10,260 nucleotides of DNA. It comes from an uncultured archaeon (GTDB lineage: Archaea > Asgardarchaeota > Thorarchaeia > Thorarchaeales > CAZPUN01). The stretch is taken from contig CAZPUN010000051.1 in the NCBI GenBank assembly GCA_964589775.1, forward strand, positions 1 through 10,260, read 5' to 3'. The notes under the pieces are model-generated. The model saw only the letters and a list, made by a program, of their open reading frames with translations, searched no databases and had not been told where the DNA came from. The position numbers were made by a program, and so were the translations under genes. Shown piece after piece: positions 1 to 8,346 of the stretch (position 1 is its first letter; every line of letters begins with the position of its first letter).

Positions 1-294
1 CGTTTATAAAATATTAAAAAATTCCACACGGAAAATGTACCTGTAATTGCTGAACATAAAGCGGATCAAAATTACCTTGTTGTATCAGCTGCATCAATTA
101 TTGCAAAAGTGTTTAGGGATAATGAAATTAAAAATTTAAAAAGTAAATGGGGCGAAATAGGCGCAGGATATCCCGCATCAAATAAAACTATAAAATTCAT
201 ACGTGATTATTATTTGATGCACAAAGAAATTCCAAATTTTGTAAGAAAAAGCTGGAAGACAATTGAAAAAATTAAAAAATCACTTATTCAATAG
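1..294 (+). CDS. rnhB: Ribonuclease HII, C-terminal part (5' truncated by window; apparent frameshift near nt 16-21)
   Basis: Frame 1 from nt 10 reads NIKKFHTENVPVIAEHKADQNYLVVSAASIIAKVFRD...GEIGAGYPAS...FVRKSWKT. This matches the archaeal RNase HII motifs AEHKAD, VSAASIIAKVxRD, G(S)GYP and RxSW. The ORF-track start at 109 is an internal GTG. There is an in-frame TAA at 7-9. Confidence 0.93.
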
Positions 295-1765
295 GTACAA
301 ATTGTCTTGCAGCTTCAGACAAAGAATTAATCTTACCAGAGGGTGTAATTGCACGTTTTCGGATTTTAGCAAAGGTTGGAAGCCGAACTGACTCGCCAAT
401 AAATAATGCCTCTCCAACATCCAACGTGGTAATACTATCTAGTGCTGCCTTATCAATACCCTCACTTGTTTCACCAATATGTTTGAGATCATAAGGATTT
501 GTGACCCTTAAAATAACTTGAGAGTTGCATTGGCTTAAAACAGTAGTAGATAATCTAACTGGGCGTTGTGAGACCAAGCCTAATAGAGCAAAAAATTTTC
601 GACCTTCTCTAGCTATGGTTTCGATTGCAGATTTTGATAATGCAGATTCTTGGCTTGATTCCGGGCAAAATTGATGCGCTTCTTCTAACATTAAAATAAA
701 TGGTGAAATTAGATTCTTCCTTCGTAAATCTAATAATCGTGTTGCAAGCCAATAGGCAATTATTTGCTTTTTACGTAAACTCAATAAGCTACTAAGATCA
801 ACAATAATCAAATGCCCAGGTTTTACTATGCTTTTTAAATTTGGATTTGGTATTTTTCCAAATAAATTATAATGCTCGAGCTGGCTGAGCCACCCAACTA
901 AAGCTTCCTTTGTAGTTCTAGAAATTTCAGAGTTTATTATTTCTTCAATCAAATCAGACATTGCATATTCTTCTTTTTTCTTACGCTTTTGATAAATTAT
1001 CTTTGACAACTCACGCAACTGTATTGGACTCATTTGCGGAGCAAGTGACGCAAAATCGTAAACACTTAATGATGAAGTCGGAATTTCAAAATAATGGCCT
1101 GGAATCAAAAATACGCGATCTTTATATCGTGATTCTGCAAAATATGTATATTCACCATGCACATCTAAAATTATAATTGATATTTGCCCTTCATCCTTTG
1201 TTCGCTTTAATAATTCTTCAATTAGAACTGAGATAAAATATGATTTACCAAATCCGGACATAGCTAAAACTGCTAAATGCTTGCCTAATAAACGATCAAT
1301 ATCTAATTTGAGCGGAATATCATGTGATGAAACATATCCTAAGTGCAGACCATGCTCAGTCAATCCAATAAATTTGAACAACAGTTCAGAACTAATTTTC
1401 CAAACTTTTTCACCTGGTGATGGAGGATATAATGGCTTTGTAATCATATCAGCATCAATAATTCCAAGCGGCACAGCTTCAACAAGAGTGTACTCCCATT
1501 TATCAGTAGGAAAAACATTACTTAAAGGCGCACCATGTGATTGATATTCTTTTACTGCTTCAAAATGCTGATAATATCGATTAACCTTACGAATGTTTGT
1601 TATACGGGATACCATTTTTTTATTATGTACGTTACAAATTACAAATTGTCCCAATTGTATTTTTTTCTCATCACCATCATAAGATTCTAATATAAATTCA
1701 AACTTTTTTAAACTGGGACTATCATTAGTTGAAACAATAGTACCAAGAAGATCCTTTTCAAGCAA
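284..1765 (-). CDS. herA: HerA bipolar DNA helicase/translocase (FtsK-HerA ATPase with N-terminal HAS barrel)
   Basis: Motifs: Walker A (KHLAVLAMSGFGKS), ILDVHGEY, Walker B (LMLEEAHQF), IAREGRKF, SQRP, LSQCN and a beta-rich N-terminus (LGQFVIC). The start is most likely TTG at 1765, with GGAGG 8 nt upstream and overlap of the nurA stop, rather than ATG at 1840. Confidence 0.93.
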   Translation of the reverse strand: MLEKDLLGTIVSTNDSPSLKKFEFILESYDGDEKKIQLGQFVICNVHNKKMVSRITNIRKVNRYYQHFEAVKEYQSHGAPLSNVFPTDKWEYTLVEAVPLGIIDADMITKPLYPPSPGEKVWKISSELLFKFIGLTEHGLHLGYVSSHDIPLKLDIDRLLGKHLAVLAMSGFGKSYFISVLIEELLKRTKDEGQISIIILDVHGEYTYFAESRYKDRVFLIPGHYFEIPTSSLSVYDFASLAPQMSPIQLRELSKIIYQKRKKKEEYAMSDLIEEIINSEISRTTKEALVGWLSQLEHYNLFGKIPNPNLKSIVKPGHLIIVDLSSLLSLRKKQIIAYWLATRLLDLRRKNLISPFILMLEEAHQFCPESSQESALSKSAIETIAREGRKFFALLGLVSQRPVRLSTTVLSQCNSQVILRVTNPYDLKHIGETSEGIDKAALDSITTLDVGEALFIGESVRLPTFAKIRKRAITPSGKINSLSEAARQFVPIE

Positions 1766-2885
1766 TATTCTTTCCTCCAAAGGGACTGCGTTCTCTTCTT
1801 TTTCTGAATAAGCTATATGGCATACCACTAAGTAGTGCAATATGCGTTATAATTTCCTCAATTCTTTGTGAATCAATTCTTGCGCGAATATCTGCTTCTA
1901 TTAAGGGTGCAGGAAGAGCATATTCAACGTGGTGACCCATTATTGGTAACAACGCTGCCGAAAGCCTATCAGCTTCTATAGAAATATCAAAATTGTTTAT
2001 GAATTCGATCCGGACAGGTAAATCGTATTGAGAACTCTTTAAATAAAAATAATAAATGTCATGTTCAAATAAAGAATTATTTTTCTCAATTTTAAAAATA
2101 CAACTACGCTCACCTACTTCTAATAAATAATTTAATAAATCAACATCATTACAACGATTTAAGATATTGCGGTAATCATATGAGAGTATAGCATTCAAAT
2201 CCGATCGATCTTTTAATAAAATAGGTAATAATGTTAAAATATTCCGAATTAAAGAATTAGAGTGGCTGTCTTTTATTAACCCTATAAGATGAACTTGTTT
2301 TTGCTTCGATACTTCAAATAATTGATTGTATAAATCTACAACCTCTAAAAACAATTTAAAATTACGAGACTCCTTATTAGGAACATCAGTGGGATAAAAA
2401 TGTAAAGACCCATCCATAATTAAAATATCAATATGTTTATGTTTAATTGCATTGACTGCCGTTTGGATTTCTTTCTTAATTCTCATTAATGCCGCGAACT
2501 GATCTGTTTCAGTTTGATTTGTAATCCGAGTATAGATAATATCAACTTTCGGAAATGCTTCAGGAAAAAAATCAACATACGGAGATTTGTCTTTTATATA
2601 TTTAAAAAATACCGCAACAGCTCGCAATAAAATTATGTTAAACGAAGCAATTTCTCTTTGAACAATACCACCATCAACTGCACAAAAAGATATGCCATAA
2701 GGATTTATCGGATCAACTTTGTATATCAGTGAAGACTCTTTGAAATCAATCCCGAGATTTCTATAATTTTTAAGATTAACATTATTAATGGACCTAAGTA
2801 CCTTTGCAAGATTAGATTTTGCATTTTCAAACGCTTTTATTTGATTTGCAATATTAAATAAGACATCTCCAGAGTTAATATTCAT
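1758..2885 (-). CDS. nurA: NurA 5'-3' nuclease (DNA double-strand break resection)
   Basis: Acidic catalytic motifs CAVDGG and LIMDGSL, plus GLIKDS, PVRIEF and the C-terminal YALPAPLIEADxRA. It lies directly upstream of herA, and its ATG overlaps the pyrG stop (ATGA, 2885-2882). Confidence 0.9.
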   Translation of the reverse strand: MNINSGDVLFNIANQIKAFENAKSNLAKVLRSINNVNLKNYRNLGIDFKESSLIYKVDPINPYGISFCAVDGGIVQREIASFNIILLRAVAVFFKYIKDKSPYVDFFPEAFPKVDIIYTRITNQTETDQFAALMRIKKEIQTAVNAIKHKHIDILIMDGSLHFYPTDVPNKESRNFKLFLEVVDLYNQLFEVSKQKQVHLIGLIKDSHSNSLIRNILTLLPILLKDRSDLNAILSYDYRNILNRCNDVDLLNYLLEVGERSCIFKIEKNNSLFEHDIYYFYLKSSQYDLPVRIEFINNFDISIEADRLSAALLPIMGHHVEYALPAPLIEADIRARIDSQRIEEIITHIALLSGMPYSLFRKRRERSPFGGKNIA

Positions 2886-4546
2886 TTACAACATTCCTCA
2901 GAATATTCAATAGCTGATTTCATAAATGCGAAATACAATGGATGAGGACGATTCGGTCTTGATTTAAACTCTGGATGAAATTGAACACCAATGAAAAATG
3001 GATGGTCTTTCAATTCAATGCCATTAATGATTTTTCCTTCACGATCATATGAATTAATAATAAGACCTTTAGGTTCCATTTGCGATAAATAGTTGTTCAT
3101 CAAATGATATCGATGACGAAATCTTTCGCGGATAAATTCCATGTTATATATACTATATAATTTTGTTCCCTTTAATAATTTAACATCATATGCACCTAAT
3201 CGCATGGTTCCACCCTTTAGATGAATATTACGTTGTGTGTCCATTAAGTCAACAACGGGATGAGTCGTTGTAGGATCAACCTCAGTGGTATGTGCATCAG
3301 TCCAACCCATAACACTTCTAGCAAAAGCTACCGTAGCTAATTGAGCACCAAAACATATACCCAGAAATGGAATCTTATGGGCGATAGCATATGATGCAAT
3401 TTGAATCATTCCCTCAACTCCACGCGAACCAAAACCAGGTGTAAGTAAAATTCCATGTATATCGGACATCTTATTATCAATATCAATATTTTTAATATTA
3501 TCAGTATCAATCCATTTTATTTTAATACTACGCCTATTATGGACTGCCGAATGTGTTAATGCTTCAATAATACTGACATAAGTATCTTTCATCTCAGTAT
3601 ATTTACCTGGAAGCGCAATTATAATTGGATTTGACCCTTTTGCATTTTCAAAAAGAGATACTAGTTCAGACCATTCAGTATAATCTGGCTTTGGAAAATC
3701 TAAATTCATCTTACGCTCAATAACAGATGCAACATTCTCTTCTTCAAAGCTTAAGGGCAATTTATAAATAATATCAATATCAGGATTGGACACTACTGCG
3801 TCAGGAGAAACATTACAAAACTTACTAATTTTTGTTTTTGCACTTTCGGAAAGGGGTTTAGTAGATCTACAAACAATTATATCAGGTTGCAATCCTAAGC
3901 CTTGAAGCGTTCTAACACTATGTTGTGTGGGTTTGGTTTTGAATTCGCCTACGGATTCTAAGAAAGGAACTAATGTTACATGGACTATTAAAGTCTGGTC
4001 CTTATCAAGCTCACTAATTAATTGTCGAATAGCCTCAAGAAAAGGCATAGCTTCAATATCTCCAACAGTACCTCCAATTTCGATAATAAGAAAGTCAGGC
4101 CTTTTCTCATTTTGAACTTGTCTTATACGATTCTTAATTTCATCAGTCACATGAGGAATAATTTGAACAGTTCTACCCAAATAGCTGCCTTCTCGCTCTT
4201 TTAATATAACTGCTAAGTAGATTTGCCCAGAGGTTATGTTATGCGAAGGGTGAACGTTATAATTTAAAAATCGTTCATAAGTACCAAAGTCTTGGTCAAT
4301 TTCAGATATTTTAAAAGAAAAACCTTTAGCAGGCACAAACTCCCAACTATCTTCAGTAACAAAAACTTCACCATGTTCTACGGGATTCATAGTACCAGGA
4401 TCAACATTGAGATAAGGGTCAATTTTCATTACTTCTACATGATATCCTCTGAACTGCAATATTTTAGCTATTGATGCAGTAGTTACTCCTTTTCCAATTC
4501 CCGAAAGAACACCACCAGTAACAAATATAAATTTGGTTAACCTCAT
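2882..4546 (-). CDS. pyrG: CTP synthase (glutamine-hydrolysing)
   Basis: Synthetase motifs [58 protein letters not shown] and KTKPTQHSV. The glutaminase triad GICFG ... QFHPEF is intact. Confidence 0.98.
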
Positions 4547-4610
4547 ATCAAATCCACACTTGAATTTTTATATAGACAATGTGTAACAAGATTATTCGAA
4601 TATAAATATT

Positions 4611-5201
4611 TTATAATATGATTTCTTCTTCAGCGGTCTTCCTGAGAATTTTATTAAGTATATCAAGGAATACAGGCATAACATTTGTACCATCTTTGGC
4701 TATACCTGATGAAATTGGAATATTAGGTGGAATACCTAACATAAGTCTTAGTTCATCAATAGAAATTATATTATCCAAATCAATTTTATTCAGAAATATA
4801 TTTAGGGGCATACCACTTTGTATATTATCCTTGAAATATTTATTTAATTCGGTCCAACTTTGTGCATTATCATCCAATATCGCTCGTTGGCTATCAGCGA
4901 CAAAAATAATTCCATCGGTTCCAGAAAGAACAATCTCACGCGTTGAACTATAAAAATCCTGCCCAGTAGCAGACCAAATATGAACATCAACGATCCAGCC
5001 AGCACCCAATGAAAATGCTAAAAAGCCATAATCACAAAACATAGTACGACCACGAGAATTCTCAATAAATGATAACCGATCTTCCAGATTATAATATTTG
5101 AAAATTTGCTTTACCATAGTTGTTTTTCCACTCATTGCAGGACCAAATAAGACAATCTTTATCCCAATTCGTCGATTTGTATAGTCAATAATCATTTCCA
5201 T
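4611..5201 (-). CDS. MglA-family small Ras-like GTPase
   Basis: The N-terminus IIDYTNRRIGIKIVLFGPAMSGKTT resembles MglA INYxxREINCKIVYYGPGLCGKTT. Switch I is RTMFCD (MglA RTLFFD), G3 is SATGQ without Asp (MglA TVPGQ), followed by DGIIFVADSQ, G4 NKID and G5 GIA. The start is probably ATG 5201 (TGATG overlap with the upstream stop) or ATG 5195. Confidence 0.9.
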   Translation of the reverse strand: MEMIIDYTNRRIGIKIVLFGPAMSGKTTMVKQIFKYYNLEDRLSFIENSRGRTMFCDYGFLAFSLGAGWIVDVHIWSATGQDFYSSTREIVLSGTDGIIFVADSQRAILDDNAQSWTELNKYFKDNIQSGMPLNIFLNKIDLDNIISIDELRLMLGIPPNIPISSGIAKDGTNVMPVFLDILNKILRKTAEEEIIL

Positions 5202-6055
5202 CAACCCCAAAGACTTTCGACATATATTCCAATATTTGATAAAACACTATCGCGCACACAATTACGGAATTCTTCATTCCACTCAGATTGTATAAAGAGT
5301 AATATATACTCCAATGCACTTTCAGAAATACCAATAAGCTCGATGAAATTTCTTTTCCCAATTTGTATATCAACATTCAATGAACGCAATATCTTTATTT
5401 TCATTAATAGGAAATATGCACGTCTCGATGCATGATAAAAATCTTGCATTGCCTCATCAAACAAGTCGTGTATGATCATTTTAAATTCTGAATCCAGTGA
5501 TAAGACTTCTTCAAATACATCTTTAGAAATTCTATGAATTTCTTTTTCTAGATGACGCCGAACATGTTCTACAGAAACTTTCGTTTTTTCGACTATTTTT
5601 GTAATTATTTTTTCAAAGTATATATTTCGATTTCTTTTTGAAACTAATTTCGGAATTGAATCCTCTAGGCGAATGATAATGGAATTTTGAGGCATTTTAA
5701 GTTCCGAAATTGAATTTTCTAAAATACCAATTATCCATCCACTAAAATTATCAAAAGTTGTTAAAGCAATGCTAGATACTTCTGCAGGAGAGCGGATAAT
5801 AATTCGCGGCTCATTAGGCTCTTGTAATTCAAAATCCAATATAGAATATAATTCTTCTCTTGAAGTAAAACTCTTCCAAAAAACAATTTCTTTTCTAAAT
5901 GATAATAAATTCGAAAGAAAGCTTGATAATAAGTCAATATTATGTTTATTAGAGCCAATAATGATTATGGGGTCACGTAGTAAGAGACCCCAAAGAATTT
6001 TTGAGAAGTCCGAAACCCCAATTGATTTAATTATTGCGTATATATCAAATCGCAT
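5201..6055 (-). CDS. Hypothetical protein; putative DENN-core (cDENN/dDENN)-like protein
   Basis: 284-aa ORF coupled to both neighbours, with SD GGTGA ending 7 nt upstream of the ATG. The pattern GVSDFSKILWGLLLRDPIIIIGSN..IDLLSSFLSNLL ... GWIIGI ... SIIIRLED followed by a helical C-terminus resembles cDENN then dDENN. The CDS itself is well supported; the DENN call is tentative. Confidence 0.55.
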   Translation of the reverse strand: MRFDIYAIIKSIGVSDFSKILWGLLLRDPIIIIGSNKHNIDLLSSFLSNLLSFRKEIVFWKSFTSREELYSILDFELQEPNEPRIIIRSPAEVSSIALTTFDNFSGWIIGILENSISELKMPQNSIIIRLEDSIPKLVSKRNRNIYFEKIITKIVEKTKVSVEHVRRHLEKEIHRISKDVFEEVLSLDSEFKMIIHDLFDEAMQDFYHASRRAYFLLMKIKILRSLNVDIQIGKRNFIELIGISESALEYILLFIQSEWNEEFRNCVRDSVLSNIGIYVESLWG

Positions 6056-6056
6056 T

Positions 6057-6971
6057 TCATCTCACCAATGCAGGCTCTGAATATAATAAAATTTCTCGTA
6101 ATGATGGCGTAATTGATTTTTCAGCAAATGACTTGCTCAATATATTGTTCAATTTCTTAAGATAACTATTAATTAAAATACGAATCAACCCAAGTCTTTG
6201 TCTACCTTTTTCGATATTTATTCCTAATACACCATTAAGGGTAGAATACATAAAATAACGATTATATTGAGTCTCAATTAAGACAGATTCAAGAGTATCA
6301 TTTCGCATATATTTCATAATTTTACTTGTTGATTTAAATAAAGAATGAATCATAGCAGATTTAAAATGATCTTGATTTGAAGTAGATATCTCAAAAATTC
6401 CTTCAATTGATAATGAAATGTTTTTTATTCCCGGTAAGGCCTCATTTAATTCATTAAGGGTCGTTTTCAAATTCAAGATTTGTTGAGGGGGCAATAAAAT
6501 AATATGACGATCAATATGCTTTTCCTCATCAATTTTACGTTTTACTTCAAAAGACTTTGTAATTTTTGAAATATCATCTTTTGAAAAGGTCCTAAGAGGA
6601 ACAGAAATATCCTTAAATTTCAAATAGTTTGCAATTTCTACTAAAACTTGTTTTAATTCAACAAATATTGCAGCTAAATTAGTTCGACTTACGGTTGTAA
6701 TAATAAGATAATAATCAGGAGTATTTGGAATTGGTGCAATAAATACTTTTGATTCACGTGATTCTGCTAGAACATATTTTACATTTGAAAATATTTTAAT
6801 AGCAATTCCATATATTCCACTTGTTGCTGAGGCAACCTCGAACACTTCATCCTTATTAAACCACACACCAGAACTTCCAATGGGCACCCCATCACTATGA
6901 ACTAATACAACATTTTCAACACCATTAATAATAGTAATTTTATTTAATAATTTCTTAACAGAATCATTCAA
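6057..6971 (-). CDS. Tandem (double) Roadblock/LC7 domain protein, MglB-like
   Basis: Domain 1 (aa ~1-117): LLNKITIINGVENVVLVHSDGVPIGS...VASATSGIY...YVLAES...NLAAIFVELK. Domain 2 (aa ~163-279): LNELNEALPGIKNISL...SAMIHSLF...ESVLIET...RLGLIRILI. Both show the roadblock helix-beta-beta-helix-beta-beta-beta-helix pattern with the NLG/LGL motif. TTG start with SD AGGAG at 6986-6982. Confidence 0.82.
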   Translation of the reverse strand: MNDSVKKLLNKITIINGVENVVLVHSDGVPIGSSGVWFNKDEVFEVASATSGIYGIAIKIFSNVKYVLAESRESKVFIAPIPNTPDYYLIITTVSRTNLAAIFVELKQVLVEIANYLKFKDISVPLRTFSKDDISKITKSFEVKRKIDEEKHIDRHIILLPPQQILNLKTTLNELNEALPGIKNISLSIEGIFEISTSNQDHFKSAMIHSLFKSTSKIMKYMRNDTLESVLIETQYNRYFMYSTLNGVLGINIEKGRQRLGLIRILINSYLKKLNNILSKSFAEKSITPSLREILLYSEPALVR

Positions 6972-7021
6972 TGTAGTAACACTCCTGTGACTCTAACATA
7001 GAGTCCAGAAGGTTACTATAT
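6971..7021 (-). promoter_or_regulatory. Long imperfect inverted repeat/RNA hairpin covering the SD and reaching the start codon of the roadblock gene
   Basis: Minus-strand RNA is AUAUAGUAAC-CUUCUG-GACUCUA-[UGU]-UAGAGUC-A-CAGGAG-U-GUUACUACAU. Stems are 7 bp (7018-7012/6980-6974), 6 bp with one G-U (7011-7006/6987-6982) and 7 bp (7005-6999/6995-6989), with two single-nucleotide bulges. Confidence 0.7.
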
Positions 7022-7024
7022 AAA
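7017..7024 (-). promoter_or_regulatory. Putative archaeal TATA box (TTTATATA) of an internal promoter for the roadblock-DENN-GTPase module
   Basis: TTTATATA on the minus strand at 7024-7017. Standard archaeal spacing puts the TSS near 6994, at a TA step about 23 nt before the TTG. The BRE is weak, and the AT-rich background lowers confidence. Confidence 0.45.
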
Positions 7025-7035
7025 CTACCCAAATA

Positions 7036-8346
7036 TTACATATGGATATTTGCAGTTTCAGGTATTTCCCCAAATACTTTCTTTGATGCTTTCATAACGT
7101 CCAATCGGTACTGGGGCAATGTAAATACCCTAATAATATCCAAATAACCTTGCATTACTTTTGCAATACTTGAATAATCAGAAAACTTGGCATGCTCTTT
7201 AGTATCCAGCACTCTAAAAATTGGGATTTCAAATGGATTTTCTTGATATGGATTATAAGGGATCATAGGTAATGTAGGAATATCAATCCAAATAAATTCA
7301 GCAGGAACATGAGCAGTTTCAGCAATTTTTATTTGTAACATTTCTTTTGTTTTTTCATCTGCCAAAATTTTGGAAATAAACTTATCCGCAGTCTCAATAA
7401 CTTTTTGAAATGCAGGCTTATATAAATGCCTTTTTCTTAGTTTTAAGAATATATTAAAAGCTTTTTTACCGATACTCGACGTATCATTTTTCAGGCTTTT
7501 TGCAAGAGATAATACATATTCATCATCTAGTAATGAATATTCATCAGGTATTTTATAGCTTGTCAAAGAAAATATCTCTTCAAGATATTCTAAGAGTTCA
7601 ACTAACATAATCTCAACAGCACGAACTGTTTTATGATAATAAACATTAAAAAATAGTTCATATCGCGCAACAAGAAAGGATTCTATAGCCCCTTTTGCCT
7701 TTAAATTAAAATGAATTATATAATTATCTTCATTTATTTCAGAATTTATAATTAAACGATGGGTATCAATTAATCCATATTCAACCCCACAATAATGTGA
7801 ATCACGGGCTAGATAATCCATTTTGTCAGAATCAATTTGACCCGCAACAATACTACTAATAACACCATCAAGGGAACCATGTAGTTGCCCAGTAGCAATC
7901 TTTCCAATTTTTGTAGAGGAATAACCTGCATCGGATAAAATATCATGAATTTCACTATTTCTAATAAATTTACGAGTGACTTCTTCATGATTTATTTTTC
8001 TTTTTGGAATTAACAGATCTTCAAATACATGGCTAAAAGGTCCATGCCCAACATCATGAAGAAGAGCAGAAAGCCTAGCTAATTCGCAAAGATTATCATT
8101 TTGTTTACCCTTAAAAAGATAGGAACACCACAAATCAGCTATATACATAGCCCCAATAGAATGCCCAAAACGCGAATGCTCTGCGGAGGGGTATACCCAA
8201 TTAGCGCCAGATAACTGTTTAATTCGTTTTAATCGCTGGAATGTTGGCGTCATTATAATGGAATATATAAGATCATCTACAATAAATATTCCATGTATTG
8301 GATCAACAATTCTATTTGGCAAGTAGTCCATTATTACCAAATCCAT
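7036..8346 (-). CDS. HD-domain phosphohydrolase, SAMHD1-like/COG1078 dNTP triphosphohydrolase family
   Basis: Motifs DPIHG, FQRLKRIKQL, YPSAEHSRFGHSIG, LLHDVGHGPFSH, IDSDKMDYLARD and VYYHKTVR. The H..HD..D metal ligands are intact. An alternative start is the ATG at 8331. Confidence 0.9.
   Translation of the reverse strand: MDLVIMDYLPNRIVDPIHGIFIVDDLIYSIIMTPTFQRLKRIKQLSGANWVYPSAEHSRFGHSIGAMYIADLWCSYLFKGKQNDNLCELARLSALLHDVGHGPFSHVFEDLLIPKRKINHEEVTRKFIRNSEIHDILSDAGYSSTKIGKIATGQLHGSLDGVISSIVAGQIDSDKMDYLARDSHYCGVEYGLIDTHRLIINSEINEDNYIIHFNLKAKGAIESFLVARYELFFNVYYHKTVRAVEIMLVELLEYLEEIFSLTSYKIPDEYSLLDDEYVLSLAKSLKNDTSSIGKKAFNIFLKLRKRHLYKPAFQKVIETADKFISKILADEKTKEMLQIKIAETAHVPAEFIWIDIPTLPMIPYNPYQENPFEIPIFRVLDTKEHAKFSDYSSIAKVMQGYLDIIRVFTLPQYRLDVMKASKKVFGEIPETANIHM

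Follow-up and report, generated by a model that had tools for sequence, protein, structure and literature searches.

In eukaryotes, membrane traffic and mTORC1 nutrient sensing depend on DENN, longin/Roadblock and small-GTPase modules. Among the systems that come close to the locus described here, the group-1 MglA GTPases carry an arginine adjoining the G2 threonine, their G3 motif (TVPGQ) lacks the aspartate of Ras, and they hydrolyse GTP by means of an intrinsic arginine finger (Wuichet & Sogaard-Andersen 2014, PMC4316618). Their genes are coupled to an MglB/Roadblock gene no more than four genes away, and the MglB-type GTPase-activating protein (GAP) acts through the intrinsic arginine of MglA (PMC4316618). 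In Asgard archaea, Liu, Makarova et al. (bioRxiv 10.1101/2020.10.19.343400, Fig. 5b) described a predicted conserved operon for a LAMTOR1-like Roadblock protein, a Rab-like small GTPase plus a DENN-domain protein. As described in that preprint, the GTPase is not a Rag, and a folliculin-like guanine nucleotide exchange factor (GEF) role was proposed (bioRxiv 10.1101/2020.10.19.343400). DENN domains also appear among the Asgard trafficking homologues of later papers, and Asgard longins with GAP motifs have been discussed (PMC12290439). The characterisation by Tran et al. (PMC10933270) covered Asgard GTPase and Roadblock proteins other than those of the three-gene operon, and the literature searched contained no experimental work on that operon. 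Here we analysed a stretch of 10,260 nucleotides (nt) from an uncultured archaeon of the Thorarchaeia (contig CAZPUN010000051.1 of assembly GCA_964589775.1), referred to below as the window. This is archaeal DNA with a GC content of ~31%, and its minus strand carries three adjacent genes, A, B and C, for a tandem Roadblock protein, a DENN-fold protein and an MglA-type GTPase. The Roadblock–DENN–small GTPase operon of Asgard archaea is very probably what this locus represents, in a Thorarchaeota-related copy, and it would encode a self-contained small-GTPase switch.

The three genes and their products

Genes A, B and C are tightly packed and translationally coupled, and they form a predicted three-gene operon. 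Gene A (6971..6057, minus strand) starts with TTG and encodes a tandem, or double, Roadblock/LC7 protein of 304 amino acids (aa). Its TGA stop codon (6059–6057) is separated by the single base 6056 from the ATG at 6055 that opens gene B (6055..5201, minus strand; 284 aa), the gene for the DENN-fold protein without a longin domain. The TGA of gene B (5203–5201) in turn overlaps the ATG of gene C (5201–5199) in a TGATG, and gene C (5201..4611, minus strand; 196 aa) encodes the MglA-type, group-1-like small GTPase. Gene C could also start at an in-frame TTG at 5210; the orthologues start at the ATG position. This layout had been read from the sequence before any database search, and the coordinates, the 1-nt gap, the TGATG overlap and the two 64-nt spacers that flank the trio all agree with the minus strand.

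Gene A encodes two Roadblock domains fused in one chain, with a charged linker between them. The N-terminal domain (about aa 1–120; nt 6612–6971, minus strand) is matched by the Pfam family Robl_LC7 (PF03259) at aa 7–80, with 27.8 bits against a cutoff of 23. The C-terminal domain follows the charged linker (about aa 160–296; nt 6084–6494, minus strand) and repeats the strand and helix pattern of the Roadblock fold in an alignment of 30 family sequences. When the profiles of the two halves are aligned with each other by hhalign, 108 columns fall in register (probability 63%, E 7e-5). In addition, aa 160–296 in the ESM Atlas model of this exact protein match a 160-aa Roadblock/LAMTOR2 cluster with template modelling (TM) scores of 0.75/0.73. 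The N-terminal domain is conserved much better than the C-terminal domain; D27-G28-x-P30 and R264 are invariant in the family. NCBIfam returned no match for gene A.

Gene C belongs to the Ras superfamily, with Pfam matches above cutoff to Arf, Roc, Ras and Gtr1_RagA. Among solved structures, it is closest to MglA from Myxococcus xanthus and from Thermus thermophilus (E 3e-24, 89 bits), and the next-best structure group is that of Rab11 (E 2.8e-7, 34 bits). In 22 gene C orthologues from the same operon, the GxAxSGKTT P-loop, G51-R52-T53, T79-G80-Q81 and the NKxD motif are invariant, and R52-T53 aligns with the Arg-Thr pair of M. xanthus MglA. The G3 motif reads S/T-A-T-G-Q. Its aspartate is absent and Thr/Ser comes first as in group 1; A-T replaces V-P. 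Because R52 lies beside the G2 threonine and G3 lacks the aspartate, we assign gene C to an MglA group-1-like class, and because of the A-T in place of V-P we call it group-1-like rather than canonical group 1. In the same predicted operon, the Roadblock gene is the second gene upstream of gene C, within the distance of four genes that characterises group 1. Gene C encodes an MglA-type GTPase whose nucleotide-binding site is complete and which brings its own switch-I arginine (R52) and the catalytic glutamine Q81.

The same genome holds two other GTPases of this kind. At G000:C57:39500-42700 (L105:2863-4735, minus strand), a 187-aa MglA-like GTPase, 38% identical to gene C, lies among three single-domain Roadblock genes, one of which also matches LAMTOR5 and another MAPKK1_Int/LAMTOR3. 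This cluster has the classical arrangement of a GTPase plus Roadblock proteins, and it contains no DENN gene. At G000:C21:12290-13840 (L106:2791-4342), a third, MglA/Arf-like GTPase of 251 aa has an N-terminal extension of ~70 aa. Its gene lies tail to tail with that of a 264-aa protein matching the helical repeat of the Pfam family SNAP (soluble NSF attachment protein; E 2.6e-7).

Gene B matches no Pfam and no NCBIfam family, and its relatives are named "hypothetical protein" in the databases. A word-based search found one relative; an exhaustive search with hidden Markov models found 73 representatives, nearly all of them ~300 aa long. The AlphaFold2 model built on a 2-sequence alignment was unusable, with a predicted local distance difference test score (pLDDT) of 44.7. 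The alignment of 41 sequences that was used instead gave a model with pLDDT 92.9 and a predicted TM score (pTM) of 0.87. In this model, an alpha/beta, cDENN-like domain (aa 1–140; nt 5636–6055), with strands up to residue 137, is followed by a helical, dDENN-like domain (aa 145–284; nt 5204–5623), with helices at 145–282. Across the 41 sequences, R27, P29 and R54 of gene B do not vary. A three-layer alpha/beta domain with a five-stranded sheet and then an all-helical d-DENN is the architecture of the cDENN+dDENN pair. A search of 48,161 PDB representatives by VIA-align, which is independent of Foldseek, placed the DENN module of folliculin first (6nzd_H, Z 12.3 over 182 aa, model residues 1–260), with 3v42 at Z 12.2. 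Further DENN matches were DENND10 (Z 11.0), SMCR8 (10.4), DENND1B (10.3), DENND1A (10.0) and C9orf72 (9.8). DENN modules made up 5 of the top 10 matches in the first pass and 7 of the top 8 in the second, and they cover both domains of gene B (model residues 1–260/271). By Foldseek probability, too, the DENND1A/B rows come first (0.97), and folliculin 6nzd_H reaches 0.90. Pfam applied to 41 family members gave weak matches, to Folliculin_C in 3 (best E 4.8e-4) and to DENN in 1 (E 0.09). Against the sequences of the PDB, the family profile returned nothing but spurious matches to ferritins or coiled helical proteins.

The chain of gene B opens directly on the cDENN-like domain and has no N-terminal longin (uDENN) domain, so the protein would be a DENN core and not a full tripartite DENN module. 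The stand-alone DENN core is supported at the fold level by the model, with weak support from sequence. Fused, longer forms of gene B were sought at 586 aa or more and none was found, and the extra parts of the family members with 370–434 aa contain no Pfam domain; both are weak evidence. Elsewhere in the genome, a 311-aa open reading frame (G000:C56:9664-10599; L096:4665-5600) weakly resembles the N-terminal 60 residues of gene B (E ~5e-6). It matches no Pfam family and has no GTPase or Roadblock neighbour; GNAT and methyltransferase genes lie nearby.

The same structure search raises another account of gene B. P-loop ATPases of the GspE, VirB11, FlaI, RecA and AAA+ types reach Z 8–10.8 on its N-terminal domain, and the protein could be a decayed ATPase, with an AAA+ or PilT/VirB11-like core and a helical lid, that has lost nucleotide binding and serves as a scaffold, its likeness to DENN being convergence. 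Chains of GspE (Z 10.8), VirB11, FlaI and a RuvB-like protein do rank among the DENN matches, the top Foldseek rows by E-value are ORC2, RFC and ClpB, and the Atlas search returned, beyond gene B orthologues, AAA+ clusters only. However, the ATPase matches are limited to residues 1–140 (up to 212), whereas those to DENN modules span 1–260/271 and fill 7 of the top 8 places, and the Foldseek probability peaks at the DENND proteins and not at an ATPase. Among the 41 family members none matches any ATPase family, the family has no Walker A motif, and gene B has no NTP-binding motif. The published profile analysis of Liu et al., as far as the preprint describes it, independently assigned DENN as well. 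The cDENN is a minimal P-loop-like alpha/beta domain (Zhang et al., PMC3521125), and ATPase matches arise in the fold searches because of this topology. A decayed ATPase is therefore, in our view, very unlikely. All three protein assignments of the sequence-only reading, namely a double Roadblock protein, a DENN core without longin and an MglA GTPase, survived testing, and its overall interpretation is supported.

Distribution and surroundings of the trio

The order A-B-C was kept in 11/11 of the first loci examined, in 75/79 Thorarchaeota loci, the other four being truncated at contig ends or having a broken gene B, and in 8/8 loci from other Asgard families. Synteny among relatives was one point on which the proposal of a three-gene module could have failed, and it held. 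The DENN-like gene is present in 41/41 genomes of the same order and in 231/400 Asgard genomes. It is absent from several Asgard families, mostly of good completeness (f8 0/31, f11 0/22, f10 0/12, f13 0/12), and the absence from whole families indicates that the distribution of the operon is clade-structured rather than universal. The copy studied here belongs to a divergent, low-GC family and is ~33% identical to the typical Thorarchaeota orthologues. Its Asgard setting is seen in the relatives of the same order, which are metagenome-assembled genomes of Candidatus Thorarchaeota / Promethearchaeota, and in the archaeal HerA-NurA neighbours.

On the minus strand of the window, the genes run in the order thymidylate kinase, HD-domain phosphohydrolase, genes A-B-C, CTP synthase, NurA and HerA; the plus strand holds a gene for a 2-oxoacid:ferredoxin oxidoreductase subunit. 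The arrangement from the HD phosphohydrolase through the trio and CTP synthase to NurA and HerA occupies positions 284–8346. In the Thorarchaeota order (loci L017–L095), these flanks recur: the HD gene was counted in 83 loci, the CTP synthase gene in 80, the NurA gene in 66 and the HerA gene in 62. In none of the eight loci of other Asgard families do the HD, CTP synthase, NurA and HerA genes accompany the trio. The trio stays together while its flanks change, which points to the trio, and not the wider neighbourhood, as the conserved unit.

Spacers of 64 nt lie on both sides of the trio, one between the HD-domain gene and gene A (6972..7035, minus strand) and one between gene C and the CTP synthase gene (4547..4610, minus strand). 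From these the sequence-only reading had concluded that the trio is set off from its neighbours. The downstream spacer holds a TATA-like CTATATAAAAA that could serve the CTP synthase gene, and its length is not conserved: the closest relative has 14 nt before CTP synthase. Since the 3' boundary varies among relatives, this part of the conclusion is borne out at the 5' end alone.

The upstream spacer contains a TATA-like TTTATATA at 7024–7017, and an SD-like (Shine-Dalgarno-like) GGAG at 6985–6982 precedes the TTG of gene A by 11 nt. At this locus, the promoter and the SD, both claimed earlier, are present as consensus-level calls. Orthologous operons gave 82 distinct upstream regions for comparison; 75 of the 82 contain a T[TA]A[TA]ATA box and 73 of the 82 an SD-like motif. 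The distance from the box to the start is nearly fixed, with a mode of 59 nt in 44 of the 75 regions that have a box. The Roadblock gene has TTG as its predicted start in 61/82 distinct loci; the start codons of the orthologues were chosen heuristically, and the loci come mostly from related Thorarchaeota. The retention of a TATA-like box and an SD upstream of gene A supports a promoter of the trio's own at its 5' end.

The leader can fold into a hairpin (~7016–6976, minus strand) that pairs with the GGAG of the SD (-22.5 kcal/mol, z -4.9). The upstream spacer is 95% identical to that of the closest relative, compared with 65–87% for the three proteins. Other Thorarchaeota show no unusual stability at the corresponding place (median z -0.6 over 81 upstream regions), and many of these regions have a weaker GGACC...GGUCCGGAG stem. 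The strong SD-sequestering leader hairpin is limited to this low-GC family. A stable and highly conserved hairpin that pairs with the SD suggests that translation of gene A might be controlled by its leader in a way specific to this family.

A candidate GTPase switch

These assignments suggest how the three proteins might work together. The tandem Roadblock protein would fold into an intramolecular pseudo-dimer, the equivalent of an MglB dimer or of a LAMTOR/longin heterodimer. Seated on the switch regions of the GTPase, this pseudo-dimer would bring R52 and Q81 into place and in that way stimulate hydrolysis, much as MglB acts on MglA. The analogy with DENND1-Rab35 and with FLCN/SMCR8 suggests that the DENN-fold protein could join as an exchange factor, co-regulator or scaffold. 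Between them, the products of genes A and B would then control whether one dedicated GTPase is in its GTP or its GDP state, and the cellular output might lie in membrane, polarity or nutrient signalling.

Several points weigh against this scheme. The likeness of gene B to DENN modules is one of modelled fold (Z 10–12 at 9–15% identity) with sub-threshold sequence matches, and P-loop ATPases reach Z 10–10.8 on its N-terminal domain alone. Foldseek against the PDB gave no gene B match at E<=1e-3. Co-transcription of A-B-C is predicted from the arrangement of the genes. Binding between the partners and an effect on the nucleotide state are inferred from related systems, and which partner would be the GAP and which the GEF is pure analogy. 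In addition, MglB has been reported with dual activities (PMC10933270). A prediction of the three-chain complex with the DENN-like protein as partner scored 0.00 against a mark of 0.32 and carries no weight either way.

The roles could also be divided differently. In complexes such as folliculin-FNIP and C9orf72-SMCR8, to which the closest structures of gene B, FLCN and SMCR8, belong, the complex acts as a GAP. By this model, the Roadblock/longin-like chain would be the GAP and supply a catalytic arginine in trans, and gene B would be a structural partner, for dimerisation or membrane anchoring, without exchange activity. Gene A does have the invariant D27-G28-x-P30 and R264. However, gene C has an invariant arginine of its own beside the G2 threonine, which is the MglA group-1 solution, so that no arginine would be needed in trans. 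Gene A is Roadblock-type and not longin-type by both Pfam and the Atlas, and with a single DENN gene the operon encodes no DENN-DENN heterodimer. We therefore regard a GAP of this type as quite unlikely.

Alternatively, gene B may be an effector or cargo protein that binds the GTP form only and carries the output of the switch, with regulation left to gene A alone, as in classical MglA-MglB. Roadblock proteins alone can accompany such GTPases, as the separate MglA-like GTPase of this genome, with Roadblock partners only, indicates, and the sequence of gene B gives no basis for naming catalytic residues. Yet the solved DENN modules among the matches influence whether their GTPases carry GTP or GDP (the DENND1B-Rab35 GEF complex, 3tw8; the FLCN GAP complex, 8dhb), and the strict coupling of three genes with an overlapping stop and start is typical of stoichiometric complexes. 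An effector role for gene B is unlikely on balance, and a switch in which both A and B regulate C remains the reading that we prefer.

Because an archaeal operon of this kind keeps all three components in separate genes that are inherited together, it offers a tractable minimal system for the origin of these regulators, and it lets one ask what a DENN core does without a longin lobe. The adjacent, coupled Roadblock and DENN-core genes might be the prokaryotic forerunner, still unfused, of the longin-DENN module of eukaryotes. In that case the DENN core would already have served as an exchange factor dedicated to an MglA-type GTPase, the partnership of DENN and GTPase would be older than Rab and Rag, and the operon of this lineage would perhaps be controlled in translation by its hairpin. 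We offer this scenario as a speculation that is doubtful at present.

Comparison with known systems

By its description in the preprint, the operon of Liu et al. matches the locus in its three gene families, its Asgard host, the conserved putative operon and the analogy with folliculin and Ragulator. Here too, the Roadblock, DENN-fold and non-Rag GTPase genes are adjacent, and the neighbourhood is kept across most Asgard lineages. In contrast to that description, the GTPase is MglA group-1-like and not "Rab-like", and the Roadblock partner consists of two domains fused in tandem. The operon itself, as the preprint presents it, is thus already known (2020/21), and this locus is one more, rather divergent copy. 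The novelty that the sequence-only reading implied does not hold, since both the operon and the folliculin/Ragulator analogy had been published by Liu et al. in 2020/21, as far as that description goes. With the idea, so described, in print since 2020/21, the remaining value of the operon is its biochemistry. Our additions are modest: a GTPase that is MglA group-1-like, a fused tandem Roadblock protein, a trio that is a conserved unit with a conserved promoter-like element of its own, and a stable, family-specific leader hairpin. The operon paper of Liu, Makarova et al. reportedly appeared in Nature in 2021.

MglA-MglB of M. xanthus and T. thermophilus (3t12, 3t1q, 6hjh) shares with this locus the GTPase family, the intrinsic arginine finger, the G3 motif without aspartate and the genomic coupling of the GTPase gene to a Roadblock-fold regulator. 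However, MglB is a single-domain homodimer, whereas here one chain holds two Roadblock domains. In addition, a DENN-fold gene stands here between the Roadblock and GTPase genes, the G3 motif is S/T-A-T-G-Q instead of TVPGQ, and the host is an archaeon.

The folliculin-FNIP and C9orf72-SMCR8 complexes (6nzd, 3v42, 6lt0, 7o2w) resemble the trio in another respect. The modelled gene B superposes on their cDENN+dDENN (Z 9.8–12.3), and in both cases a Roadblock/longin-type platform and a DENN module stand beside one small GTPase. In the eukaryotic complexes, however, longin and DENN lie in one chain, two such chains heterodimerise, and a longin domain carries the catalytic arginine finger, whereas here the Roadblock and DENN parts are encoded by separate genes with a single DENN gene. 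Their clients are Rag or Arf/Rab, and the GTPase here is MglA-type with its own arginine. The trio may work like a longin-DENN GAP complex, but it does not belong to that group. With the DENND1A/B-Rab35 GEF (3tw8, 6ekk), gene B shares the DENN fold over model residues 1–260/265 (Z 10.0–10.3, Foldseek probability 0.97). DENND1 differs in its N-terminal longin (uDENN) lobe, of which gene B has none, and the two are 12–15% identical.

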